Of a stretch of DNA of 10,976 nucleotides, positions 1 through 10,976 are shown one piece after another. Numbering within the stretch: the first letter of the stretch is position 1; each line of letters opens with the position of its first letter. The DNA comes from a virus. The stretch is taken from the UHGV virus genome UHGV-0119342; one strand, written 5' to 3'. Under the pieces are notes generated by a model. It was not told where the DNA came from, searched no databases, and saw nothing but the letters and a program-made list of their open reading frames with translations. Made by a program: the position numbers and the translations under genes.

Positions 1-12
1 AGGAACAAACGC

Positions 13-61
13 TTAATCGCGGTTTACATCAGCGCGGCGTTAATCGGGTGATTTTCATCAG
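13..61. repeat. Imperfect tandem direct repeat upstream of the recombinase gene (ttaatcgcggtttacatcag at 13-32; ttaatcgggtgattttcatcag at 40-61)
   Basis: Two copies read directly, both starting with ttaatcg and ending with catcag, 27 bp apart; aatcgcg recurs at 93-99. Function not established. Confidence 0.4.
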
Positions 62-124
62 ACACGTTTAAATACACCATCTAAAGCGATACAATCGCGC
101 TATTAGTTTTTATGGTGGTAAAGA

Positions 125-1528
125 ATGAAACGTGTAATCAGCTACATCAGATTCAGTTCTGAGCGACAAGCCAAAGGCGACTCACTACGCAGACAGTCTA
201 AGATGGTTAATGACTGGCTTAAGGCTCATCCTGAGTACTACCTTGACCAAGATTTATCCTTCCGTGATTTGGGGGTGAGTGGGTTCACTGGTAAGCACTT
301 GAAAGGTGGCTTAGGTGACTTTTTAACCGCTATCGAGAAAGGGCTTGTTAAAGCTGGTGATACGCTCTTGATAGAATCTCTTGACCGTCTGTCACGTCAA
401 GATGTAGACCAAGCAAGTGAGCTACTCAGAAACATTCTTCGCTCTGGTGTAGATGTGGTCACCTTGTCCGATGGTGAACATTACACACGAGAATCTCTTA
501 AAGACCCGTTAGCTCTGATTAAAAGCATTTTGATAATGCAGCGGTCGCATGAGGAAAGTTTGAGGAAGTCTGAGCGTATACAAGCTGCATGGGATGCAAA
601 GAAAGAAGCTGCTAAAGCCGGTATCAAGATTTCTAGGCGTTGTCCTGCATGGCTTAAGCTTAATGATGACCGTAAAAGCTTCTCTGTGATACCTGAGAAG
701 GTAGAAACTGTGAGGAGATGCTTTCAATTACGGTTAGAGGGTAAGTCTATCTGGGAGATTGTCCGGATTCTTAATGATGAAGGTCACCAGACACTTAACC
801 AGTACAAAGCAGGTAAGTTTGGTCAAACCTCAGTGCAAGACCTTCTGAAAAATCGCTCTGTAATTGGTTACTTCACACCTAAAGGCTGTGAGGAGATAGT
901 TGGTTATTTCCCCCCTATCATCCCTGAGACTGATTTCTACAAAGTCCAGCAACTATCATATTCTCGTTATGGAAGAAAGCCTGCTTCAGATAAACCATTG
1001 AGTGTGAATCTTTTCAAAGGTGTTATCCGTTGTTCTGAATGTGGTCATGCTCTGATTATCACAGGCTTTAGCGATACAAGAAGCGGTATATATCGCTGTC
1101 CTTCTCGAAATGAAAACCGTTGCAATGCCAAAGGGCTGTCACGTAAGCAAACCGATGGTACATTACTTGCCCTGCTATCCCGTATAGACCGATTTGATAG
1201 CGATATGACGAATACCATAGACACACTGAAGCTACACCGTGAACACATCTCAAGCAATATTGAAAAGCTGGTACAGCTATCACTTGAAATTGAAGACTTG
1301 TCCGCTATTACCAGCAAACTAAAACAGTTAAAAGGTGAGCTATCACAGGTTGATGCGGATATCGAGAAGGAGACACAACGCCTTAAATCTATTGATGTGG
1401 GGTGTTTGTCTGATTGTGACTTGACTACAAAGGCGGGAAGGATTGAAGCACAACTGATAATCAAAAGTGCTGTTAAAGAGGTCGTTTTGAATACTGCTAA
1501 ACGTCGATGTAACTTTTCACAACGGTAA
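125..1528 (+). CDS. Large serine recombinase (integrase/resolvase family)
   Basis: 467-aa ORF. N-terminal resolvase-type catalytic region (YIRFSSERQ with candidate catalytic Ser; LIESLDRLSRQ), Cys-rich zinc-ribbon-like segment (CSECGH...YRCPSRNENRC), C-terminal coiled-coil-like stretch. GGTGG about 8 nt upstream of ATG. Confidence 0.85.
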   Translation: MKRVISYIRFSSERQAKGDSLRRQSKMVNDWLKAHPEYYLDQDLSFRDLGVSGFTGKHLKGGLGDFLTAIEKGLVKAGDTLLIESLDRLSRQDVDQASELLRNILRSGVDVVTLSDGEHYTRESLKDPLALIKSILIMQRSHEESLRKSERIQAAWDAKKEAAKAGIKISRRCPAWLKLNDDRKSFSVIPEKVETVRRCFQLRLEGKSIWEIVRILNDEGHQTLNQYKAGKFGQTSVQDLLKNRSVIGYFTPKGCEEIVGYFPPIIPETDFYKVQQLSYSRYGRKPASDKPLSVNLFKGVIRCSECGHALIITGFSDTRSGIYRCPSRNENRCNAKGLSRKQTDGTLLALLSRIDRFDSDMTNTIDTLKLHREHISSNIEKLVQLSLEIEDLSAITSKLKQLKGELSQVDADIEKETQRLKSIDVGCLSDCDLTTKAGRIEAQLIIKSAVKEVVLNTAKRRCNFSQR

Positions 1529-1554
1529 GGTAATTGACCTACCAATAACAGAAG

Positions 1555-1613
1555 ACCCCTCGGAGGATGTTACAGAGGCTATACAGTCGCTTTCTGAAGT
1601 CACTGAGAGGGGT
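1555..1613. terminator. Candidate structured terminator region between the convergent recombinase and 254-aa genes
   Basis: Perfect 7-bp inverted repeat acccctc (1555-1561) / gaggggt (1607-1613) with a 45-nt spacer that contains the motifs gttacagagg and agaggctatacag; T-rich flank on the minus-strand side. Long spacer makes terminator function uncertain. Confidence 0.3.
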
Positions 1614-1657
1614 TTAATAGATGTTGATGAGGTTATCATATAGTTGAGATTCTATCG

Positions 1658-2422
1658 TCAGTAGCGCTTGTTAGGATTCACAGAAAACTTCCGTAAAGCA
1701 TTACCCGACTTAAGCACCTTTGAAGCTTGCTCATTAGCTGAGGCTGTGAAGGTGCTCTCACCATTTTTAACGCTAACGCTCTTAGAGCACGTTACACGGG
1801 CTTTTAGCGCTTCATCTGATAACTCACTTGCCGAATAGCTAAAAAGCTCTTTACAGGTCAGCATAGGGCTTCCAAGGCTCGTTGTAGTGTTGCCAGTGTT
1901 CTTTTTACTGGTAGAACCGCCATCATTCGTGGTAGCGACCTTTCCAGTAGCTGCTGAAACATCAGTTTGCCCTACGATTGAACGAAATTCTACACCTTGG
2001 AAGGTCATCTGAATACGAAGACCATTAGCAATGGTATGCTCTTTACTCGCTTTAAACTGAGTAATGATACTATCAGTGATAGATATTCCATCTTTACAAA
2101 CAATAGTGATGATTTGCTTCTGGTCTCGCCATTGTTCAACCGTAGAAATAAAGGTCTCTACAAGTTGCCCCTGTCTGGTTAATAGAACTGAACCCGTCGA
2201 ATCAACCACTACAACACCGCTAATAGAGATGGTCTTAGGTGCTCTCTGAACATTATCAGTGATAGTTTGCCCCGATTGCATAGCCTGAGTTGTCACCATC
2301 ATCGGTGAGTCATAGTCCATCTGTTCAGTAGCTGTTAAGGCAAGAAAAGATTCTACATTATCTCTAAGGTGAAAATAGATACCATCTTTACCTGAGTATC
2401 TAATTTGCTTTGTGTCAAACAT
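1658..2422 (-). CDS. Hypothetical protein, possibly tail-associated (immediately downstream of the tape measure gene)
   Basis: 254-aa ORF, AGGA 9 nt upstream of ATG, Ser/Thr/Gly-rich C-terminal half. Functional guess from position only. Confidence 0.6.
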
Positions 2423-2441
2423 TGTTGTTATTCCTATTCTG

Positions 2442-2487
2442 TTAAGCGTGAGCTACGTGAAATCTAATTTTTGATGTTGGTATCTGC
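2442..2487 (-). promoter_or_regulatory. Conserved promoter-like element, copy A, about 20 nt upstream of the 254-aa gene start
   Basis: Minus-strand reading gcagataccaacatcaaaaattagatttcacgtagctcacgcttaa is about 70 percent identical to a 46-bp element upstream of the tape measure gene; contains a -10-like TAGATT after an A-tract, no canonical -35. Confidence 0.5.
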
Positions 2488-2553
2488 TCAGAAGAAATCA
2501 CGTAGCATTCGACTATTCATAGTTGAATCGTCATACTAGATAAAGATTAATAG

Positions 2554-2571
2554 ATTGCCATGTGTGGCAAT
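2554..2571 (-). terminator. Candidate hairpin 25 nt downstream of the tape measure stop
   Basis: Perfect 7-bp inverted repeat attgcca / tggcaat with 4-nt loop tgtg; AT-rich but not pure U tail on the minus strand. Weak terminator or attenuator. Confidence 0.3.
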
Positions 2572-2595
2572 AAATATTAGTAGTTCTAACATTGT

Positions 2596-4662
2596 TTATT
2601 CCTCTGGGTAAGCGGAGCTAATCAAGGTATCTTCCTGCATACGATTAATATGCGATGTGGTTCTTTCATCAATAACCTTTCCATCAAGTACCGTCTGAGT
2701 TGTGATATTGATTGTCTGAGGCTGAATATTTACTGACGGCTTGATAACCTTTAAATCTTGTGTGAATGTTTCCACTCGACCTTTCAGATTATTTAATGCT
2801 TCAGGTGAAAACTGTGGAACATCTTTTGATTTGCCATGAACCATAGCCCATAAAACAGCAGCTAAAGAGTTCATGTCACCAGTCAATGCTTGGTCTGTGG
2901 GTTCCACCTTTGACCTTACAACTTTGTCAATTGGATTATCTGACTTACTCATCTGACGTTCATAGAACGGTTTAACAATGGAGTTAATCACATCAGTTGC
3001 CATACCGACAATCATTACTTTGGTAATTGCATCAGCTACAGATAATTTTCCTTTACCACCTTCAACACTACCGGAACGTGAATTAATTCTTCCCGCTGCT
3101 GTATTTGCTACATTTCCAAGCATGGAAATAGCCCTAATTAAGTTCCAGATACCACCTACAGCACCAATACCAGACCTTACAGCGACAATACCAGCAAGTC
3201 CCTTTAATGCACTTAACAGGCCATTTGCGATACCATCAGCTACAGCTTTTTGAGTGTCATTTAATTCTCTGTAAGCAAGGGTCACTCTGTCAAAGAATCC
3301 CTGCACTCGGTAGCTAATCGTGGTTAAATCATCAATACCGTTTGACATGCTTTTCATCAGGTCGCCAAAATGTTCACCAAGATTTTTAGATTGACCACCT
3401 AGTGAATTAAGTAAATTAGTCAGTGACCTTGTAAAGTCTGTTAAACCTTCCTGTGAACCGTCGAACATTAAGGCCAGATTATTATTCCATGAATTAGAAA
3501 GGCGGCCTAACTGCGTCTGAGTAGAGTTAATAATCTTTTCCCATCCACCAGCTTTATCAATCATCCTTCCCATTTCAGCGGATACTTTAGGAAGAACATC
3601 TTTAGAAAGAACTTTACCGTTCTTCATAGCTGCATCTAATTGCTCGGTAGTCATCCCAAGGCTTCTGGCAAATAACTGGAAAGCACCTGCCATTCTGTCA
3701 CCTAATTGACCACGTAGCTCTTCAGCCTGAATCTTCCCTTTAGAAGCCATCTGCTCGAAAGCTTTCAGAATCCCGTTAATTTCATCAGTGCTTAAACCCA
3801 TTAGTCGGGATGTACCAATCACATTAGAAAATAAGGATTCTTTCTGGTCTGCATTCATATCACCAGCACCAGCGGAAAACTTAGCAAAGCTACTTAATGT
3901 TTCAATCTGGTCTACACCTGTATTATTAGCAAGATTCTTAACGAAGTCTGTAGCTCGTTTAGCGCCTTCATCGCCTAATACAAATTGTGCCGCTCGTTGT
4001 GATGCTTCTTTTTTCAGACCAATCTCCATAATCTTCCTATAAGCTTCTAAGGCTGTCTGAAAACTATAAATGGCTGTACCTGCTTTGATTGCACTTGTAG
4101 CTAATACATCTAAACCATTTGAAGCATTTTCACTGTGATTGTTTTTGCTGGTGGTCTTATTAAACTTAGAAAGTGTTTCACGTAGATTTTGATTTAACTT
4201 TGCTAACTCACGATTAAAAGCTTCGTTCCCAAGTGTCTTGGATTTACCGCTTAAGCTGTAATACTGGCTTCTAAAATACTTCTCAAGTAGAGGATTAAAG
4301 TCACGAAGCTTGCTCATATTCACGCTATGCGCTGCTGTGATTGCTCTGTTGCCGCTAATTCGTGGTTGCCTTGCTGCTTTAACAGTTTCTTCAACCTGAG
4401 TTTTGAACTTAAAGACCTTCGTAGATTTGGCTCTTTCCTCCAGCTTATTAAAAGTCTGGTTAATCTTCTTTTCCATATTCCCCAAAGAGGCTGTTAAATC
4501 CTTATCCATGCTCTTTGGGTTAACTTTAAATGCTCTATTCAAATTGCGTTCAATTCTTTGTGCTGACTGCAAAGCTGCCTTTTCAACTCTTTGCAGTCCC
4601 TTAATAACGTTTTCATTGAAGCCTAGCTCAACGATAAAACTATCAACTGTGAATTTGCTCAT
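2596..4662 (-). CDS. Phage tail tape measure protein
   Basis: 688-aa ORF. Coiled-coil-like N-terminal region, central segment resembling the conserved tape-measure domain (GKIQAEELRGQLGDRMAGAFQLFARSLGMTTEQLDAAMKNGKV), Gly-rich hydrophobic segments near the C-terminus. AGAGGTG 10 nt upstream of ATG. Confidence 0.8.
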   Translation of the reverse strand: MSKFTVDSFIVELGFNENVIKGLQRVEKAALQSAQRIERNLNRAFKVNPKSMDKDLTASLGNMEKKINQTFNKLEERAKSTKVFKFKTQVEETVKAARQPRISGNRAITAAHSVNMSKLRDFNPLLEKYFRSQYYSLSGKSKTLGNEAFNRELAKLNQNLRETLSKFNKTTSKNNHSENASNGLDVLATSAIKAGTAIYSFQTALEAYRKIMEIGLKKEASQRAAQFVLGDEGAKRATDFVKNLANNTGVDQIETLSSFAKFSAGAGDMNADQKESLFSNVIGTSRLMGLSTDEINGILKAFEQMASKGKIQAEELRGQLGDRMAGAFQLFARSLGMTTEQLDAAMKNGKVLSKDVLPKVSAEMGRMIDKAGGWEKIINSTQTQLGRLSNSWNNNLALMFDGSQEGLTDFTRSLTNLLNSLGGQSKNLGEHFGDLMKSMSNGIDDLTTISYRVQGFFDRVTLAYRELNDTQKAVADGIANGLLSALKGLAGIVAVRSGIGAVGGIWNLIRAISMLGNVANTAAGRINSRSGSVEGGKGKLSVADAITKVMIVGMATDVINSIVKPFYERQMSKSDNPIDKVVRSKVEPTDQALTGDMNSLAAVLWAMVHGKSKDVPQFSPEALNNLKGRVETFTQDLKVIKPSVNIQPQTINITTQTVLDGKVIDERTTSHINRMQEDTLISSAYPEE

Positions 4663-4679
4663 TCATATTTTTCACCTCT

Positions 4680-4725
4680 TTAAGCGTGTTGTACGTAAAT
4701 TCTATTTTTCAGTGTGGGTATTAGC
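4680..4725 (-). promoter_or_regulatory. Conserved promoter-like element, copy B, about 18 nt upstream of the tape measure start
   Basis: Minus-strand reading gctaatacccacactgaaaaatagaatttacgtacaacacgcttaa; -10-like TAGAAT after an A-tract; both copies end in CACGCTTAA just before the RBS. Confidence 0.5.
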
Positions 4726-4779
4726 TTTACAGATTTCATGAGGATAATTCTTATCCGAATCATCACGTAGCACACATAC

Positions 4780-4821
4780 AAAAAAAGGGAGAGCTACCGA
4801 TGTCACTCGATAATCTCTCCC
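4780..4821 (-). terminator. Rho-independent terminator (minus strand) between the 71-aa gene and the tape measure gene
   Basis: Perfect 7-bp GC-rich stem GGGAGAG / CTCTCCC (4787-4793 / 4815-4821), 21-nt loop, followed on the minus strand by a run of 7 U (4780-4786). Confidence 0.55.
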
Positions 4822-4871
4822 CGTACTATAGATTCGATAGAACCTATCTCATATACCCAACCAATTCTTTT

Positions 4872-5087
4872 TTAATGTCTGACAAGATAATGTAATTCCG
4901 TTTCACCTATGATTTGAGCATCAGAAGGAATACGGTCAATACACCACTTTGGAATCTTGCGTGTTTTTGGTTTGTGTGAGGTGATAACTTGACGTTTGTT
5001 TTTAATTCTTAAGGCTGGCTTAGTTTGTAACTTTAAGTTTTCACAAGCCGACTTAATAGTTTCATAACGCTGTTGCAAATCAATCAT
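4872..5087 (-). CDS. Hypothetical small basic protein
   Basis: 71-aa ORF, GAGGT 6 nt upstream of ATG, starts 23 nt after the stop of the upstream 234-aa gene; Lys/Arg-rich C-terminal half. Confidence 0.6.
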   Translation of the reverse strand: MIDLQQRYETIKSACENLKLQTKPALRIKNKRQVITSHKPKTRKIPKWCIDRIPSDAQIIGETELHYLVRH

Positions 5088-5110
5088 TCATCTACCTCAC
5101 ATATGCATAA

Positions 5111-5815
5111 TCAAACAGCCTTGCTAAATTCTCGTGGAACACTCAGAAAATCATTGAAGCTGATAATCTGTGCCAACTCTTGACGGTACTCCTTAGCCAG
5201 CGCTTGATGGTCACTAATCAGCTTAGCCAGTCTTGATTTCAGCAAATTAATCTCATTTTCTCTTGCTTTCATCAGTTTCTCTTTGGCAATTTCTTCAAGC
5301 TCAGCTTGTGATTTATCAGCAACAATTAGAGACAATCGATGTGGTGCTCTGACAGCTCTTTCCGTACGAATAACCCTTTGACCTTCTGGTAAATCTGCAA
5401 TCACTTTACCAATCTCTACAGGGTCATACCCCCAACCGTCACGGTCTAGTCGAGAGAAATAAGCATAAGAATTGGTTTGAAGCTCCATTAAAATAGCCAT
5501 TTCGTCAATTTCGTCTTCAAGCTTGGACTGAATTTTCTCGTAAACACTTCTCATTGCTTCTTGAGAGTCTTTAATAGCTTGGAAATATCGGCGTTGTAGC
5601 TTCAACTTCAAATCAAGTTCACAACTTTCGTTCATAGAAAAATCAATTTCAACTCTTGGAATCTCGAGTGGTTCTGGTGGAATATATGGACCTTTATTTA
5701 CTTCGTGTGATTCCCGCCAAGCTCTATCAAAAGATTCACGCAAAGTTAATTCGTGAATATCAAGTGCACTTGGTCGGCTTTCAATAATCATTTCATTTTC
5801 ATCACGGATAGCCAT
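5111..5815 (-). CDS. Hypothetical acidic protein with coiled-coil-like C-terminal half
   Basis: 234-aa ORF, AGAGGAAAGG 5 nt upstream of ATG; heptad-like helical C-terminal region. No recognisable catalytic motif. Confidence 0.65.
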   Translation of the reverse strand: MAIRDENEMIIESRPSALDIHELTLRESFDRAWRESHEVNKGPYIPPEPLEIPRVEIDFSMNESCELDLKLKLQRRYFQAIKDSQEAMRSVYEKIQSKLEDEIDEMAILMELQTNSYAYFSRLDRDGWGYDPVEIGKVIADLPEGQRVIRTERAVRAPHRLSLIVADKSQAELEEIAKEKLMKARENEINLLKSRLAKLISDHQALAKEYRQELAQIISFNDFLSVPREFSKAV

Positions 5816-6020
5816 TAATACCTTTCCTCTTCTAAGATAATTTATGTTTCAGTTTTTAAAAAGCACACCTGACATCCTCGAACTTAGAAGAGGCTTAAAA
5901 GGCGTTTGCCAAGTATGCTTTTTAAAAGCTGAAAAGGCCCTAGATAACTAAAACGCTATAAAGGGCTAAGGTGAAGAAATTAAAACATCTAAAGGATTCA
6001 ATAACGAATGAACAAGAGTA

Positions 6021-6069
6021 CTTTTCGAGATGACCTCTCAGGTTATATAAGAGGTCATGTAGCGAAAAG
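6021..6069. repeat. Nested palindrome in the leader upstream of the 234-aa gene
   Basis: Inner perfect 9-bp inverted repeat atgacctct / agaggtcat (6030-6038 / 6050-6058) with 11-nt spacer, flanked by outer arms cttttcg (6021-6027) / cgaaaag (6063-6069). No U-tract on either strand. Confidence 0.45.
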
Positions 6070-6155
6070 CATTGCACCTTTCCAAATCAGAATATCCATC
6101 CATCGGATTATTGAAAATATGATTTTAGGAAGAGTTGCTCTTCCCTATAATTAAA

Positions 6156-6184
6156 ATTATGTCATACTTAAGGTTATTTGTCAA
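6156..6184 (-). promoter_or_regulatory. Candidate sigma70-type promoter (minus strand) for the 234-aa / 71-aa genes
   Basis: Minus-strand -35 TTGACA (6179-6184), 17-bp spacer, -10 CATAAT (6156-6161); implies a leader of about 330 nt. Confidence 0.4.
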
Positions 6185-6462
6185 CAGCCTTTTAACAGAT
6201 TGGTAACATCAATTTCTATTTACTGTGTTGCCTACCCAGCAACCAACAAATAAGCCAAGCAACGTCCAAGCAATTATTAAGCCCATTAGTGAACCCTCAC
6301 AGAATCCGTAACCAAAATATTGTCGCCGTACAGGATTGTCACAGCACCTTTCAAAAATTGCTCTGGGGAAATACTGTATTTGTTCGTTTGCTCGATAACC
6401 AATCTTTTCATGTCGCTGTCTGCAATTGGTAGCATCATTCGAGGCTCGTTAAACTCCACCGA

Positions 6463-6609
6463 CTAAATAAAGTCAGAGATGTTTTCTGCATTATCAGCCA
6501 TCAGCTTTAGTAATTTATCAAAATTAATTGCGATACCTGCATCACTGAAAGCCTGAATCATCAGAGCGGTGTCGTTATCAACGAAAATCTGTAATTCGTA
6601 ATTGCTCAT
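6463..6609 (-). CDS. Small acidic hypothetical protein (48 aa, not in the supplied ORF track)
   Basis: Hand translation MSNYELQIFVDNDTALMIQAFSDAGIAINFDKLLKLMADNAENISDFI; AAGGAG 9 nt upstream of ATG. Confidence 0.4.
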   Translation of the reverse strand: MSNYELQIFVDNDTALMIQAFSDAGIAINFDKLLKLMADNAENISDFI

Positions 6610-6764
6610 TTTTAAAATCTCCTTTTTACCAGACCTCCTCAATCGCTCTGTAACGAGCTAAACAGTCTTTTTCAGGGGTAGCCTGTACAGTGGTATTACC
6701 CACCCTAAAATAAGATAGTTTTTTGCGTTAGAATGCGATTGAGAGCGTCTGAGAAGCTGTTTTT

Positions 6765-7052
6765 CTAATTTCTCTTAAAGTCTCGGACTTGCATAAGATT
6801 TTTTGGTCTGGTATCGGCTCTGTTACCATTTCGATGGATAATTTGCTTATTGGATTGATAGCCATGATAAAGGAACCAGACAACATATTTCACGTAGAAA
6901 GTATATCGGCCTATATTAAATGTTTTGTTGCCGTAGTCGTCGGTATTTATCGTGACTGACTCTCCATCAGACCAGCACAGGGAATCACTGGATTCATCAT
7001 AGATAAGGTGTTCTGTAAAATATCGTCTAACATCTTCATGCCAAGGTTTCAT
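6765..7052 (-). CDS. Truncated HNH-like protein, paralogue of the N-terminal part of the 9540-10064 endonuclease
   Basis: 95-aa ORF, GAGGAGG 4 nt upstream of ATG. Shares KPWHEDVRRY with KAWPEEVIRY and VVWFLYHG...IIHRNGNRADTRPKNL with VIFYLYHG...IDHIDGDPLNNAISNL, but ends before the final HNH Asn and has no AP2 domain. Confidence 0.65.
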   Translation of the reverse strand: MKPWHEDVRRYFTEHLIYDESSDSLCWSDGESVTINTDDYGNKTFNIGRYTFYVKYVVWFLYHGYQSNKQIIHRNGNRADTRPKNLMQVRDFKRN

Positions 7053-7264
7053 AAAACCTCCTCACCCCAATAACCTAATTCAATCTTGTGACGCTCAAAC
7101 CATTCTGGCTTGACTGCTGCTTTCAGTACTTCATTTGGGCCAATGGCTTTAATGAAAATATCTTTTGAGTTATGGATGTCACCGAATCCGTTTCCTTTAA
7201 TCAGGAGGTCGGAGATGTAGCGAATCATTTTATCTGTGTGGTATTCAAAGGTAACGCATAGCAT
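7049..7264 (-). CDS. Hypothetical protein
   Basis: 71-aa ORF, GGAGG 4 nt upstream of ATG; start overlaps the stop of the upstream gene by 1 nt, and its stop overlaps the start of the 95-aa gene by 4 nt. Confidence 0.55.
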   Translation of the reverse strand: MLCVTFEYHTDKMIRYISDLLIKGNGFGDIHNSKDIFIKAIGPNEVLKAAVKPEWFERHKIELGYWGEEVL

Positions 7265-7542
7265 TAAACCTCCAGAGACAGCTTGTGAATTTTAAGACTC
7301 AATAGACGGGCAATATCAATCTTAAAGCCGTTAAGCGCCTTCAAAGTAGCTAAAGCGTCCTGACTAATTCGGATGTGTTTACGACCTTTAGAGACTGGAT
7401 ATTTCAGTAAATCCGACTCAGTAACCTCTTTAGCAATTGCAAGCTGCATAACAGTTTGATGAGGGAGGTTAGTTGTCTGTTTAATTCGGGTAAGCTCGTG
7501 AAAGGCTTCTTCTGAAATACGGGTCAAAGTGTGTTTCTTCAT
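7264..7542 (-). CDS. Ribbon-helix-helix (CopG/Arc-like) DNA-binding protein, putative regulator
   Basis: 92-aa ORF, AGAGGA 8 nt upstream of ATG. N-terminus MKKHTLTRISEEAFHELTRIKQTTNLPHQTVMQLAIAKEV fits the RHH strand-helix-helix pattern; a second similar segment (HIRISQDALATLKAL...) may be a tandem repeat. Confidence 0.55.
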   Translation of the reverse strand: MKKHTLTRISEEAFHELTRIKQTTNLPHQTVMQLAIAKEVTESDLLKYPVSKGRKHIRISQDALATLKALNGFKIDIARLLSLKIHKLSLEV

Positions 7543-8100
7543 TTAAAATTCCTCTGTAACTAAATACGGGTCAAACTCAAAGTCTGGTTGCTCGTTTTCC
7601 ATTGGCTCAATATTTCCAACGGCAATATGATGCTCAACAACACCAATTAACTTTGCGCACATTACAGCAAGCAATGCACAATATTTATCGCTTGGTAATT
7701 CGTAGCTAAGTCTGGTTGCTTGTCGCTGAAGATGATTTGTCACGGTGGCTGAGTTAATTTCATCAAGGTTCTTTAGGAGATAAAATAGCTTCTTGTTGTA
7801 TTTCGGGTGACCTTCACCTCTACAGAATCCAATGAAAATATCATCAAGCTTACTTGGTAATTGTTCGTAGCTGTCAAAGTTAGCCAGATAATTTTTGATG
7901 CTGTTCTTTGTTGTTTTGCGTACTGACATATAACGACTCCTCGGTGTAATTGCCCGAATTACTTCGTCAATGCCTTTGCGCTCTGCTCTGGTGAACTTGG
8001 GTACTTCGTGACTGGTGGGGGAGTTTGTGTAAGCGTAGGAGTTGTGCTTGTTGCGTTCTCTTGATGCCTGAAGCATCGCTCTAAATTCTCTGTCGTTCAT
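7543..8100 (-). CDS. Hypothetical protein, first gene of the leftward operon
   Basis: 185-aa ORF, GAGGG 11 nt upstream of ATG; stop codon directly abuts the next start (TAAATG). Acidic/aromatic C-terminal tail (DFEFDPYLVTEEF). No recognisable domain. Confidence 0.6.
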   Translation of the reverse strand: MNDREFRAMLQASRERNKHNSYAYTNSPTSHEVPKFTRAERKGIDEVIRAITPRSRYMSVRKTTKNSIKNYLANFDSYEQLPSKLDDIFIGFCRGEGHPKYNKKLFYLLKNLDEINSATVTNHLQRQATRLSYELPSDKYCALLAVMCAKLIGVVEHHIAVGNIEPMENEQPDFEFDPYLVTEEF

Positions 8101-8151
8101 TCATGTTCTGACCCTCATAAGATGTTATTATTCTGTTAACTTATATATACA

Positions 8152-8180
8152 ATCTTAGCAGTTTCAAAGACTAATGTCAA
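8152..8180 (-). promoter_or_regulatory. Candidate sigma70-type promoter for the leftward operon
   Basis: Minus-strand -35 TTGACA (8175-8180), 17-bp spacer, -10 TAAGAT (8152-8157); back-to-back with the plus-strand promoter. Confidence 0.3.
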
Positions 8181-8187
8181 GCATTTT

Positions 8188-8217
8188 TTAACATTTCATT
8201 AACATCTGTGGTATAAT
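8188..8217 (+). promoter_or_regulatory. Candidate strong sigma70-type promoter with extended -10
   Basis: -35 TTAACA (8188-8193), 18-bp spacer, TGg + TATAAT (8209-8217); points toward the small ORF at 8348. Confidence 0.5.
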
Positions 8218-8347
8218 GGTTTTATGAGAGAGGGAAAATATAAAGGCGTGGCTATGAGGTTTATTCGATAGGGGTTGGTACAAGCCCAACTAACCGAATC
8301 AACTATGTATTTGGTCACATGGTATTGCATTGCACACAGGAAATTTA

Positions 8348-8524
8348 ATGGTAAATCTCCCTCCTGAGCTGGGGTCACCTGATGTATGGGCTGGTGGAGG
8401 TGTTGGGCTGATTGCAGGCCTGCTACTTCGCTATGTCCTCGTCAGAGTGCTTGTTGTCTTTAAACTGTTCGGTCGTACATGGACGCTTGACCTTAAGGAT
8501 AATGACCACACAGACCCCCGTTAA
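8348..8524 (+). CDS. Small single-pass membrane protein (58 aa from the ATG; the ORF track begins at a TTG at 8330)
   Basis: AGGA 6 nt upstream of the ATG at 8348; hydrophobic segment WAGGGVGLIAGLLLRYVLVRVLVV; locally GC-richer than its surroundings. Confidence 0.45.
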   Translation: MVNLPPELGSPDVWAGGGVGLIAGLLLRYVLVRVLVVFKLFGRTWTLDLKDNDHTDPR

Positions 8525-8538
8525 ACTCCCTCCAAAAC

Positions 8539-8570
8539 CCCCTGTACGAGATAGTATAGGGGTGTCTTTA
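8539..8570 (+). terminator. Candidate terminator after the small membrane-protein ORF
   Basis: Imperfect 8-bp stem cccctgta / tatagggg (one mismatch), 8-nt loop, followed by tgtcttta. Confidence 0.3.
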
Positions 8571-9453
8571 GCATTTTGTGCTATCTATTAAAAAATAGCT
8601 TGACAGAACAGGAAAGCTGTATCTATCAAGTATTCACCTCTCTGACAGTAATTTCTAAAAGTTCTTATTTTTCAATAAGTTGTAATTAGCCAATATATAA
8701 GGCTGTCCAGTACCTTCACAGAAAAACTTCAGAAGCCTTCTTAATCAATCCACTAAGCGAGAGAGAGCGATAACCCCAGAGAGGGAAGCTCCCTTCTTAA
8801 AAACCTTCTTGACAATCTTTACAGGCCTTGTTCAAGGTAATCGCAATAGTTTTTCTTCCCTCGGTTTCCCGTGTTCCTCGGTTTGCCTATTGAGGTTTGA
8901 AAGACCTCTGTAACTTCCCTCTTAGACAGGGAAGAATAATATTGGTGACACAAGCGAAGCGCCCCTCTAAAAAGATTTTTTAGCTATTTTGTTTAAAAGC
9001 ACATCAAACGATACATTTTATTGATTTAGGTCAAAGACAAAAGCATTGACAAAATGGTAAGATTGTTCACATGACCTTACTTAACAGATTCTTAAGAGCT
9101 TTGAAGCGGCCTATTTAACAAGGTCACTACCTCTGGTCTTATCGTTCCCTCTCTTCTTGGTAGTTCTGTTAAGTATCTTTTCAGGTATCTCTTACAGTCA
9201 CTGTTAAGATGATACTCTCCCTTCGGGTTATATCGTTACTTTCTCTCCCGTTAAACACTCCTTCCTAACTATCTACATAATCACTTCTAAGAATCTTACA
9301 AGGTAATATCCAGACCTCTTATAGCTGACCTGATACAGAAACATTACAGGCATACTCTCTAGGTTCTGTGTAGTTCCCTTGGTGGGAATAGATGCTCCTA
9401 CAATAAGAGCATCATTAATCTATATAGTCCTCTTCCGAGAACTTAATAGTTTT

Positions 9454-9481
9454 TTGATGTACATCAATCATTATCTAAAAT
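9454..9481 (+). promoter_or_regulatory. Candidate promoter for the HNH endonuclease gene
   Basis: -35 TTGATG (9454-9459), 16-bp spacer, -10 TAAAAT (9476-9481). Confidence 0.3.
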
Positions 9482-9539
9482 ATGATATGAAGTTTCTTGG
9501 TAGTATTACATCAACAAGTTAATTGAAATAAGGAATATT

Positions 9540-10064
9540 ATGGTGACTAGGTATACCAAGGCATGGCCTGAAGAAGTTATAAGATACATCAATGAAAATA
9601 TTACAGCAGATTTTGAATCTGGAACATTATTTAGAAATGGTGTAAAAATCGAGGGTTCACTTGTAAATCCTAAACCAAGACAATATCTGGCTTTTGGTTG
9701 TCGGATTAATGGTAAGTTCAGAATACTTAAGGTGCATCAGGTTATTTTCTATCTATATCATGGTAAACAAGCTAAACTATGGATTGACCATATAGATGGT
9801 GACCCGCTAAATAATGCTATTAGCAATCTTCGCGAGGTTACCAAAGAGCAGAATCAGGCAAACATGATACCCAGAAAGAAAACAAAATCAGGTTACAAGG
9901 GAGTACACCCAAGAGTGGATAACAAGGGGTTCTGGGCTACAATACGCTGTAATGGAAAATCTCATTATCTGGGTCAGTTTAATACAGCAGAAGAAGCTGC
10001 AAAAGCCTATGATGCTGCATCACTGGAATTGCATGGTAAATATGGACACAGGAATTTTAGCTGA
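9540..10064 (+). CDS. Free-standing homing endonuclease, NUMOD4-like N-terminus + HNH nuclease + AP2 DNA-binding domain
   Basis: 174-aa ORF, AAGGA 5 nt upstream of ATG. HNH motif VHQVIFYLYHG...IDHIDGDPLNNAISNLREVTKEQNQAN; AP2-like C-terminus YKGVHPRVDNKGFWATIRCNGKSHYLGQFNTAEEAAKAYDAAS. Confidence 0.85.
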   Translation: MVTRYTKAWPEEVIRYINENITADFESGTLFRNGVKIEGSLVNPKPRQYLAFGCRINGKFRILKVHQVIFYLYHGKQAKLWIDHIDGDPLNNAISNLREVTKEQNQANMIPRKKTKSGYKGVHPRVDNKGFWATIRCNGKSHYLGQFNTAEEAAKAYDAASLELHGKYGHRNFS

Positions 10065-10074
10065 TAGTTAATAA

Positions 10075-10104
10075 AGACCTGACATAAACTTGTCGATAGG
10101 TCTG
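10075..10104 (+). terminator. Candidate stem-loop downstream of the HNH endonuclease gene
   Basis: agacctgaca ... tgtcgataggtct: 10 paired positions with a 3-nt bulge, AT-rich tail (gattaaagtttat); weak as an intrinsic terminator. Confidence 0.3.
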
Positions 10105-10896
10105 ATTAAAGTTTATACAGTGATTTTTCATCTTCTAATTTTTTTATAAAAATCGTAGTACCCCCTCTACATTCCCCTTCACCGATAATCTTAAAAAATA
10201 TCTACACTCAATTGATGGCTGTTAAGTACCCCAGATTCACGATATAGCACCCCCTTTGCAAAAGCAGTTAAAATATCTATAACCAATTATTGACTTTCTT
10301 CATAGCATCTGTTTACCTCCACCTCAAAAAAACCTTCATCACATTTCACAGCATCTATCAAGAAGATTTAACCTATCAATAGCTGTAACATTTTATAGTC
10401 CTGTGAAGTCCTCCCCAGTTTTCTCTGTAACAGACACAAACTTCTGTGACCTTATGTGTCAATGACTTATAAGACATGCTCTCAAGGTGCTGTATAGCCT
10501 CTTATCTTCCAATACATAAAACTCTTATAAATCAGTACTGATATGTATACAGTTCGTTTTTAACATAATAGCTGTTTTACGCACTAAGAAGCATCTACGT
10601 AGATTCTGTATAGAGATTAAGATGTCTCTAAGTGATTTTTTAAGAGGAGATACGAAGGAACTATAACCATCACTTCATAACTTTCACGTAGGTAGCTATT
10701 AAGTAGGTTGATAGTCACTTTGAGGGAATATTGATAGTGACCAACTGCATAGACACCGTTATATAGCCCTGTATATAGCACTATATGTAGTGTCTGGAGA
10801 GGAACGACTAACACGATACAGTTTACCCTGAAAAGAGACTTCACAGATTCTCTATATATTTCAATAAGTTATGATAAAAAGAGACTATATCAATAC

Positions 10897-10955
10897 TGCA
10901 TAGAATCTGTGTAGGATTGCATAGATACTTGGAAAAATGCCTTTAAATTGCATAG
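10897..10955. repeat. Helically phased TGyrTAG repeats (iteron-like or operator-array-like)
   Basis: TGCATAG at 10897, TGTGTAG at 10908, TGCATAG at 10918 and TGCATAG at 10949; spacings 11, 10 and 31 bp. The last two copies sit in a longer direct repeat ATTGCATAG(A/G)TAC. Confidence 0.45.
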
Positions 10956-10976
10956 GTACTAACCTGTTTATGTCCT

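Follow-up and report, generated by a model that had tools for sequence, protein, structure and literature searches.

The window, a stretch of 10,976 nucleotides (UHGV virus genome UHGV-0119342), contains two HNH genes, one encoding a 95-aa protein (HNH95) and the other a 174-aa HNH-AP2 protein. On balance, it is probable that the two genes are separate acquisitions from the HNH_3 (I-HmuI-like) superfamily, and that HNH95 is maintained as a small non-catalytic binding protein. Both are ordinary homing-endonuclease cassettes and do not form a close paralogous pair.

The island and its two HNH genes

Both genes are carried by an E. coli island of ~12 kb with a large serine recombinase, which is inserted in yecE and lies between the two halves of the split gene. 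In addition to the recombinase, the island encodes a Dit-like "baseplate" protein, a tape measure protein, and small genes, and sister islands occupy the tonB-yciI and wrbA-ymdF sites. Its only virion-type genes are those for the tape measure and Dit-like proteins, which are similar to and syntenic with Felixounavirus genes. Capsid, terminase, replication, and RepA_N families were not detected in family searches of the island. The features considered here are as follows.

8152..8180, minus strand: promoter-like site TTGACA-17-TAAGAT upstream of g185 (10/12, with a TG extension; a consensus match only)
7543..8100, minus strand: g185, operon gene 1, island-specific, omega about 0.2
7264..7542, minus strand: g92, 92 aa, with weak DndE-like similarity, omega 0.11-0.20
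7049..7264, minus strand: g71, conserved 66/71-aa gene directly upstream of HNH95
7057..7063, minus strand: Shine-Dalgarno sequence GAGGAGG, 4 nt before the HNH95 ATG
6790..7066, minus strand: HNH95 insertion cassette, 277 nt (boundaries ±2 nt), comprising the ribosome-binding site and codons 1-88
6765..7052, minus strand: HNH95, a 95-aa mini-HNH_3 ORF (Pfam HNH_3, 34.3 bits)
6765..6788, minus strand: HNH95 tail, VRDFKRN plus stop, the last seven codons, from pre-existing flanking DNA
9254..10070, plus strand: HNH-AP2 cassette, about 0.8 kb (boundaries ±15 nt), of which about 285 nt precede the ORF
9540..10064, plus strand: 174-aa HNH-AP2 protein, with an HNH_3 core (52.7 bits) and AP2 at about residues 118-170

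Both ORFs are real, and both proteins pass the gathering score of Pfam HNH_3 (PF13392; 24.8). As a sequence-only reading of this DNA had proposed, HNH95 aligns with the N-terminal part of the 174-aa protein: BLASTP paired residues 2-89 with residues 7-100 at 28/95 identities (29%; 33.9 bits, E=9e-8). The same reading described the two as paralogues, with HNH95 as the truncated copy, and this description did not hold. The closest relative of HNH95 was a 90-aa mini-HNH of sister islands, HNH90 (79.3 bits, E=3e-26). Among 66 library representatives matching HNH95 at E≤0.001, even the lowest-scoring one reached 35.4 bits, above the score of the 174-aa protein, whose cluster was not recognisably among these 66. 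A NUMOD4 domain (PF07463), also proposed in that reading, gave no match at E≤1 in either protein in the Pfam search. The N-terminal beta-sheet superposes on that of I-HmuI despite the absent NUMOD4 match.

The 174-aa gene is apparently an intact, free-standing HNH-AP2 homing-endonuclease gene that, judging from sequence comparisons, spread recently between diverged islands. Its product matches phrog_99 (E=6.5e-45) and has an intact core motif with both metal ligands (D83, H84, N96 at +12, and N105 at +21), in which D83, H84, and N96 do not vary across 36 homologues. The structural model (pLDDT 91) has a complete beta-beta-alpha fold, formed by strands 81-84 and 97-100 and helix 102-107. The predicted AP2 domain was supported by structure and by phmmer, although its Pfam score was below threshold (27.5 vs 33.3 bits): the C-terminal half matched plant AP2 structures (WRI1, E=3.7e-9), and the model fitted the AP2 domain of AtERF1 with a TM of 0.80 and an rmsd of 1.2 Å. 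The PGAP name of this gene, "AP2/ERF family transcription factor", is misleading. The cassette lies in the variable cargo region of the island and contains promoter-like sites at 9454-9486. In an empty allele (L004), 15 nt stand where the window has about 817 nt, and the L004-type empty site is TCTCCCGTTATAAAGACTTCTGTGCTGATTAAAATCTGTACAG. Between islands, the cassette was 98-100% identical and its flanks 54-94%; conservation so far above that of its surroundings suggests a free-standing homing-endonuclease gene that has been spreading recently. All 154 genomic copies of the gene were at least 99% identical, and homologues of its protein were found in 1220 phage records, including RB49.

Insertion and conservation of HNH95

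The four minus-strand genes between 8100 and 6765 overlap or abut: the first stop and second start lie at 7543/7542, base 7264 is shared by the next pair, and the HNH95 ATG (7052-7050) overlaps the g71 stop TGA (7051-7049) as ATGA. HNH95 would be translated by coupling as the last gene of a four-gene operon, and the ribosome-binding site (7063-7057) and the overlap noted from the sequence are indeed present. Of the genes upstream in the operon, g185 had no match to a protein family or phage in the searches made, family searches gave no match for g71, and the DndE-like scores of g92 were below threshold (PF08870, 14 bits; TIGR03184, 19.5 bits, where the cutoff is 71.85).

The suggested scan of related islands for insert-free alleles yielded empty sites for both cassettes. 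For HNH95, whose insertion junctions are precise, alignment with the insert-free islands L004, L005, and L009 gave the empty site ...TATTGG/TAG/TCCGAGAC..., where the DNA reads ...TTAGGTTATTGGTAGTCCGAGAC..., and BLAST breakpoints fell at 6789/7067. The g71 homologue ends in ...GYW and a stop in islands lacking HNH95; in the window, the cassette replaces the stop of this 66-aa gene (g66), adding GEEVL to give 71 aa. Directly after the g66 stop in the same three islands stands TCCGAGACTTTAAGAGAAATTAG, which is non-coding in insert-free islands. On the favoured reading, an 87/88-codon HNH_3 stub on the 277-nt cassette landed on the stop codon of the 66-aa operon gene, bringing its own Shine-Dalgarno sequence and now ending in seven codons of former intergenic DNA. 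An origin of HNH95 as a truncated HNH gene is supported.

Allele comparisons indicate that HNH95 is under purifying selection. Relative to the E. albertii-type allele, there were 22 synonymous and 8 non-synonymous differences (dS 0.55, dN 0.036), giving an omega of about 0.06 (binomial p=4e-10). Over all allele pairs with differences, omega ranged from 0.02 to 0.24, with p down to 7e-11. The ten alleles read from E. coli and E. albertii were of the same length, contained no stop or frameshift, and all retained His73 and Asn85. A full-length match (at least 95.8% identity) was found in 226/226 E. coli genomes holding the gene. Disrupted variants were rare, forming clusters of 1, 1, and 14 members compared with 334+79+15 for intact ones. 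The earlier view that HNH95 is not a dead remnant was borne out by the low omega and the full-length matches. The gene is nevertheless accessory: 384 genomes bear the operon and 226 of them have HNH95, which is missing from about 40%.

Between diverged islands, nucleotide identity peaked on HNH95 (96-100%) and fell to 52-75% within 0.5-0.8 kb on both sides. This pattern resembles the trace of a recent gene conversion involving the cassette and would also fit an element that still promotes its own spread.

Catalytic state of HNH95 and alternative explanations

In His-Me finger nucleases, the key residues are a metal-ligand Asp, a general-base His, a His-positioning Asn (Asn87 in I-HmuI), and a metal-ligand Asn, and some of these enzymes use a single Asn as metal ligand (PMC2816704). 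HNH95 keeps the general-base His73 and the His-positioning Asn85, but Ile72 replaces the Asp and Arg94, at +21 from the catalytic His, replaces the Asn; an Asn occurs nearby only at +22, as the C-terminal residue N95. The loss of the last HNH Asn and of the AP2 domain had both been read correctly from the sequence. The AF2 model (pLDDT 87, falling below 50 at residues 93-95) retains an I-HmuI-like N-terminal beta-sheet, a helix, and the two His-Me finger beta-strands (71-73 and 86-88). No helix follows strand 86-88, leaving the beta-beta-alpha fold incomplete. The top PDB match of the model, and the only significant one, was I-HmuI (1u3e; prob 1.0, TMq 0.63). Because both metal ligands and the alpha-helix are lost, HNH95 most likely does not work as a nuclease in the canonical way, as far as sequence and model can tell. 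As His73 and Asn85 are invariant and single-Asn nucleases exist, some nuclease activity using the terminal Asn95, whether weak or requiring a partner, is conceivable. The sheet through which I-HmuI contacts DNA has its counterpart in the N-terminal half of HNH95. This half carries a net charge of -7, compared with +1 for the equivalent stretch of the 174-aa protein, and its acidity speaks against simple DNA binding via that surface. HNH95 is probably a selected, non-catalytic protein.

The real paralogue of HNH95 is HNH90, truncated at the same residue. The two share 40% identity without gaps over residues 1-87, where homology stops. HNH90 has the motif I-F-R-D-G-N, with Phe in place of the catalytic His, and ends at +17. 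Its slot, between g92 and g66, is another position of the same operon, and it was matched at full length in 67 genomes. Seven more short HNH_3 proteins stop just past the NL motif and have no Asp at -1, which suggests a non-catalytic class; proteins of this kind also occur in lytic-phage replication modules, and other HNH-type proteins of 93-106 aa are known in phages.

Among the alternatives, it is unlikely that HNH95 is still a functional minimal homing endonuclease or nickase, acting alone or with a partner and driving its own spread between islands. This would account for the invariant His73 and Asn85, the presence/absence polymorphism with a precise empty site, and the cassette-centred identity peak with flanks decaying like a co-conversion tract. 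It would also agree with the low dS of HNH95 within E. coli (0.02-0.2, far under the 0.3-3.1 of g185 in the same islands) and with the other phage HNH-type proteins of similar size. However, both metal-ligand positions and the alpha-helix are gone, a separate domain for DNA recognition is lacking, HNH90 as the sister protein is equally conserved at a similar length despite lacking the catalytic His, and the seven further short proteins lack the -1 Asp. We consider it very unlikely that HNH95 is instead a functionless homing-endonuclease remnant heading for deletion and conserved only through recent spread. Its truncation, the tail read from flanking DNA, its absence from part of the operon-bearing genomes, and the rare frameshifted alleles fit such a remnant. 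In Xanthomonas oryzae phages, HNH(-AP2) genes that stand side by side in intact and truncated form have likewise been interpreted as progressive degeneration (PMC2248197). This explanation was already disfavoured by the 8/30 non-synonymous differences at dS=0.55 and by the ten uninterrupted alleles from two species, and the 40%-identical HNH90 has kept the 87-residue format, implying long persistence of the short form. The description "decaying homing endonuclease", given in the sequence-only reading, therefore suits the history of HNH95, with its truncation and lost metal ligands, but not its present state under purifying selection.

That reading also raised the idea that HNH95, domesticated as a DNA-binding module, competes with the 174-aa enzyme at the latter's target site or regulates it there. 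The two proteins have the HNH_3 fold in common and are collinear over about 95 residues, the window holds both genes, and there are precedents in a homing endonuclease that also serves as a repressor and in the satellite protein CapR (PMC10055350). However, among the ten HNH95-bearing loci with enough flank to be informative, the 174-aa gene was absent in seven (L002, L007, L008, L012, and L014-L016), disrupted by IS1203 in L003, and intact in the window (L001) and L006. Since HNH95 is kept without the 174-aa gene in 7/10 loci, a regulatory link is unsupported, and the distribution shows that the function of HNH95 is independent of that gene. Genome counts also differ (226 for HNH95, 154 for the 174-aa gene). 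Given, in addition, the 29% identity, the acidic N-terminal half, and the lack of an AP2 domain, to which much of the DNA recognition would fall, such a role is extremely unlikely.

A broader proposal, which we regard as quite unlikely, is that HNH95 and HNH90 are domesticated pseudo-nucleases, catalytically dead HNH_3 cores of exactly 87 residues kept by a family of satellite-like E. coli islands for use in conflict with a helper phage. On this proposal, islands retain either HNH95 or HNH90, at one or other of two positions in the operon, and the tape-measure and Dit-like genes of the host islands would come from Felixounavirus-type phages. If true, HNH95 and HNH90 might bind or block either a phage HNH enzyme or the site that it targets, or might shield the island from homing-endonuclease attack, and the short phage HNH_3 proteins would be members of a broader class, so far unrecognised, of HNH-derived proteins that are not catalytic.

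Comparison with known systems

The reading of HNH95 as a maintained, non-catalytic binding protein acquired separately from the 174-aa gene can be set against several known systems. I-HmuI (PDB 1U3E), an HNH nicking homing endonuclease of Bacillus phage SPO1, was the best PDB fold match of both proteins. The 174-aa protein aligns to its residues 38-104 with Asp-His, Asn(+12), and Asn(+21) conserved, whereas HNH95 represents roughly its first 95 residues, stopping before the catalytic alpha-helix with both metal ligands gone. I-HmuI is reportedly intron-encoded and carries a C-terminal helix-turn-helix DNA-binding domain; the 174-aa protein, in contrast, is free-standing and has an AP2 domain instead.

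The Xanthomonas oryzae phages Xop411, Xp10, and OP1 resemble the present case in combining an intact HNH(HNN)-AP2 gene with HNH-only or truncated relatives in one genome, as free-standing cassettes at variable positions (PMC2248197). Their truncated forms were interpreted as stages of degeneration (PMC2248197). HNH95, in contrast, has an origin other than the co-resident intact gene, experiences strong purifying selection, and shares its truncation point with the 40%-identical HNH90. The putative HNH-AP2 homing-endonuclease genes of T4-related phages such as RB49, RB43, and RB16 (PMC2993671) have the same two-domain architecture as the 174-aa gene and are likewise free-standing. RB49 and its relatives were among the best phage matches of the 174-aa protein, at 37-41% identity and at most 41%; their hosts are lytic phages, whereas the 174-aa gene resides in a chromosomal 12-kb island.

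A precedent for a domesticated HNH95 is CapR of the Vibrio cholerae PLE, which derives from T5orf172 homing-endonuclease DNA-binding domains, does not cleave, and persists in a small integrative element with a lytic phage as its interaction partner (cited in PMC10055350). CapR belongs to another nuclease family and keeps its DNA-binding repeats, whereas HNH95 keeps a crippled catalytic core; the function of CapR is established experimentally, and HNH95 is known here from sequence and model. The island itself is similar in size to the putative ~13-kb E. coli phage satellites of Barth, Dunham and Seed (PMC10055350), which likewise have a tape measure and one baseplate gene with the rest of the tail missing and, in a subset, a serine recombinase. 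These satellites also encode capsid, decoration, and RepA_N proteins, whereas no capsid or RepA_N family was detected in the island. The satellites are tied to Justusliebigvirus phages (Muut), whereas the tail genes of the island resemble Felixounavirus genes.

Two HNH genes on an E. coli island

The sequence-only reading had described a pair of related HNH genes, and its observation was largely correct. Both ORFs are present, one encoding a 95-aa protein (HNH95) and one a 174-aa protein. Both proteins scored above the Pfam HNH_3 threshold, and BLASTP aligned residues 2-89 of HNH95 with residues 7-100 of the 174-aa protein (29% identity, 33.9 bits, E=9e-8). The NUMOD4 motif proposed in the same reading found no match in either protein.

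The window was almost identical to E. coli chromosomes, the only difference from strain Z0117EC0032 being a 5-nt deletion. It contains most of an island of ~11.9 kb that splits the yecE (DUF72) gene. Related islands with the same backbone occupy tonB-yciI, wrbA-ymdF and, in E. albertii, a fourth site. The island genes occur in this order:

Large serine recombinase
254-aa 'baseplate' protein (Pfam Dit_like in sister copies)
688-aa tape measure protein
Several small genes with no assigned function
Four-gene operon, minus strand: g185, g92, g71 and HNH95 (6765-7052)
1.4-kb stretch between the operon and the 174-aa gene, without annotated genes
174-aa HNH-AP2 gene, 9540-10064, plus strand

The operon was present in 384 of 5426 complete E. 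coli genomes. PADLOC and NCBIfam scans of its genes gave a match for g92 alone, a weak, sub-threshold DndE-like signal. With tblastn against phages, g185 and a 234-aa protein had no match.

The island's only virion genes are those for the tape measure and Dit-like proteins, the remainder being the recombinase and island-specific genes. The two are syntenic with, and resemble, the tape measure gene of Felixounavirus phages and the gene downstream of it (30% amino acid identity over the full length, ~74% nucleotide identity). This ~12-kb island family, represented by the window (1-10976) and loci L001-L016, resembles a phage satellite or a tail-interference element. Putative E. coli satellites that are comparable, though apparently distinct, have been described (PMC10055350). 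We suspect that the island is SpLE2, the small integrative element of O157 Sakai named in PMC6256406, an unconfirmed candidate. The deletion relative to Z0117EC0032 removes GTAAA at position 1508 (within 125-1528, plus strand), and the resulting frameshift leaves a serine recombinase of 467 instead of 507 aa. In the source strain of the window, the island may have lost the ability to excise. Directly downstream of HNH95, an in-frame stop divides a gene of ~107 aa (6286-6642, minus strand) into ORFs of 59 and 57 aa; PGAP calls the gene a pseudogene, and it is intact in sister islands.

The stretch between the operon and the 174-aa gene contained the following features:

8188-8217: promoter-like site upstream of the 58-aa ORF, divergent from the operon's promoter-like site; near-consensus TTAACA-18-TATAAT, 11/12
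8348-8524, plus strand: 58-aa ORF, MVNLPPELGSPDVWAGGGVGLIAGLLLRYVLVRVLVVFKLFGRTWTLDLKDNDHTDPR, with an AGGA ribosome-binding site
8539-8562: hairpin, noted with the 58-aa ORF

The 58-aa ORF is conserved and unannotated in the closest genome. At least eight sister islands have an uninterrupted copy, annotated in one of them as a 62-aa protein. Its product contains a single hydrophobic, membrane-like stretch and could serve as a small toxin, as a holin-like protein or in exclusion. The mostly non-coding segment 8338-8721 was 92-94% identical between islands, compared with only 63-90% for the adjoining g185, and no Rfam family matched it. At 8645-8721, BLAST pieces overlapped in several loci, as if ~77 nt had been duplicated or rearranged. 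Across the whole window, an Rfam scan (E<=1) returned one sub-threshold match outside the region of interest and a tRNA scan found none; the matches found in 8000-10976 when searching for repeats and tandem repeats were all short and probably due to chance.

The 174-aa gene as a probable homing-endonuclease cassette

When the 174-aa protein was aligned to residues 38-104 of I-HmuI, an HNH nicking homing endonuclease, the Asp-His dyad and the Asn residues at +12 and +21 were all kept; in I-HmuI, Asn87 sets the position of the His (PMC2816704). Among 36 homologues, D83, H84 and N96 were invariant and N105 nearly so. The AlphaFold model (pLDDT 91) showed a complete beta-beta-alpha unit followed by an AP2 fold of three strands and a helix. 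The Pfam score for AP2 was sub-threshold, and the domain was confirmed by this predicted fold and by sequence matches to plant AP2 structures, as the sequence-only reading had proposed. PADLOC also returned a homing-endonuclease ('HEase') match.

Comparison with strain C3, which carries 15 nt in place of ~817 nt, defined a discrete cassette at about 9254-10070 and its empty site, TCTCCCGTTATAAAGACTTCTGTGCTGATTAAAATCTGTACAG. The cassette was 98-100% identical between islands whose flanks were 54-94% identical, and all 154 genomic copies of its gene were at least 99% identical, which is consistent with recent lateral spread. Homologues occurred in 1220 phage records, with identity up to 41%. Free-standing HNH-AP2 homing-endonuclease genes are a known type, counted in T4-related phages (PMC2993671), and the 174-aa protein has the same architecture. 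We therefore classify its gene, from sequence, as a predicted and ordinary new member of these genes. With filled and empty sites now defined, its target is directly testable. The RefSeq/PGAP name of the protein, 'AP2/ERF family transcription factor' (WP_000258747.1), is misleading, as it hides an intact HNH nuclease core.

Structure, origin and selection of HNH95

Fold searching was used for HNH95, since a PDB sequence search gave only antibody-fragment noise. The model (pLDDT 87) had I-HmuI (PDB 1U3E) as its sole significant PDB match (probability 1.0, TM 0.63), also matched many phage HNH proteins, and paralleled the first 100 residues of the 174-aa model element by element. It ends past the second strand of the His-Me finger, and the helix is absent. 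In the I-HmuI register, Ile72 occupies the metal-binding Asp position, His73 and Asn85 follow, and Arg94 occupies the metal-binding Asn position. From these residues we infer that HNH95 would not bind a catalytic metal in the usual way. PADLOC and NCBIfam assigned it no family, and its only phage match by tblastn was a 30%-identical Sulfitobacter phage gene.

HNH95 had been viewed as a truncated copy of the 174-aa enzyme, a view that did not hold. In a search of 1.84 billion representatives, its nearest relatives were the HNH90 family, 90-aa mini-HNH proteins of sister islands, whereas the 174-aa protein's pairwise score with HNH95 (33.9 bits) fell below the weakest (35.4 bits) of the 66 significant representatives listed. 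The two genes are thus two members of a superfamily rather than a gene and its truncated copy. HNH90 aligned with HNH95 without gaps over residues 1-87 (40% identity, E=3e-26), has Phe at the catalytic His position and ends 17 residues further on. Its gene had full-length matches in 67 genomes and lies between g92 and g66 (the 66-aa gene), one slot upstream of that of HNH95; strain C3 has neither. On either side of the HNH90 insert (L005 8289-8561, L009 8289-8561, L010 8513-8785) lies an imperfect 23-nt direct repeat of the g92 3' end, ACAAGTTATCTCAAGAGGTCTAA ... ACAATTTACTACTGGAGATTTAA. Because of this repeat, the HNH90 C-terminus NNLLLEI* mirrors HKLSxEV* of g92, and the repeat may record how the cassette inserted.

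Empty alleles, which the sequence-only reading had suggested seeking, were found for the HNH95 cassette as well as for the 174-aa gene. Islands without HNH95 read ...TATTGG TAG TCCGAGACTTTAAGAGAAATTAG... after the 66-aa gene (empty site TTAGGTTATTGGTAGTCCGAGACTTTAAGAG). Junction alignment showed that 277 nt (6790-7066) take the place of the T of this TAG stop. The insert lengthens the 66-aa protein by GEEVL, giving g71, and provides the Shine-Dalgarno sequence and HNH95 codons 1-88. Codons 89-95 (VRDFKRN) and the stop are encoded by former intergenic DNA, and the HNH90/HNH95 similarity stops exactly at the end of the insert. We had considered the HNH95 TAG as a nonsense mutation in an 'N-Q-x-N' motif (…KRN*KN vs …QNQAN), an idea discarded since the last seven codons are pre-existing flank. 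In a single wrbA-site island, two unrelated small ORFs (87 and 73 aa; L010 7900-8550) lie downstream of HNH90 in place of g66/g71 and HNH95, marking the operon 3' end as a hot spot of cassette exchange.

The gene appears equipped for expression, with GAGGAGG 4 nt ahead of its ATG and an ATGA overlap with the upstream stop, as had been noted. Ten alleles from E. coli and E. albertii were all 288 nt long without a stop or frameshift; interruption in relatives was confined to rare disrupted variants. Comparison of the window's allele with the E. albertii-type one gave 22 synonymous and 8 non-synonymous differences (dS 0.55, dN 0.036, omega 0.06, p=4e-10), and all pairwise omegas were <=0.24. These values rule out neutral decay, in line with the earlier view that HNH95 is probably expressed and not a dead remnant.

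A role in competing with or regulating the 174-aa enzyme had also been proposed, and linkage does not support it. Among ten HNH95-bearing loci with enough flank to judge, the 174-aa gene was absent from seven, which had a resolvase and/or Dam methylase instead, disrupted by IS1203 in one and intact in two; HNH95 has therefore been selected independently of it. Strain Z1323CEC0004 (L011) was dropped as a case of the 174-aa gene without HNH95, as a Tn5-type insertion truncates its island. Competition for one DNA site seems unlikely because the proteins share 29% identity, HNH95 lacks the AP2 domain and its N-terminal half is acidic (net charge -7). Nucleotide identity across diverged islands peaked at 96-100% on HNH95 and fell to 52-75% within 0.5-0.8 kb on either side, indicating recent transfer of the cassette between islands as well. 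This movement could stem from ordinary recombination, selection or homing, and for that reason we retain, as improbable, the reading that HNH95 is a still-active minimal endonuclease. HNH95 is a selected, probably non-catalytic HNH stub whose molecular role we infer.

Short HNH proteins and known systems

Seven other short HNH_3 proteins from metagenomes (100-107 aa) end a few residues past the NL motif and lack the Asp before the His. Three could be located, on lytic-phage-like contigs beside DNA polymerase genes and overlapping their neighbours; these three contigs showed no conserved partner and no neighbour in common with the E. coli operon.

HNH95 is the more useful result: its HNH core is crippled, without metal ligands or helix, yet under clear purifying selection, and HNH90 shares its point of truncation. 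HNH95 is a compact candidate for the conversion of a homing endonuclease into a protein that does not cleave. If its function were found, this could help explain the many phage-genome ORFs of ~100 aa that are annotated as 'HNH endonuclease'.

The presence of intact and truncated HNH genes in one mobile element is by itself ordinary. In Xanthomonas oryzae phages, intact HNH-AP2 genes occur beside HNH-only and truncated forms, which were read as degeneration (PMC2248197). HNH95 is a variant of some interest: a stub under selection, probably non-catalytic, whose paralogue HNH90 has the same format and fills an alternative slot. Non-cutting homing-endonuclease derivatives are known, such as CapR of the PLE satellite (PMC10055350), and HNH95, were its function found, would extend this short list of domesticated derivatives to HNH_3.
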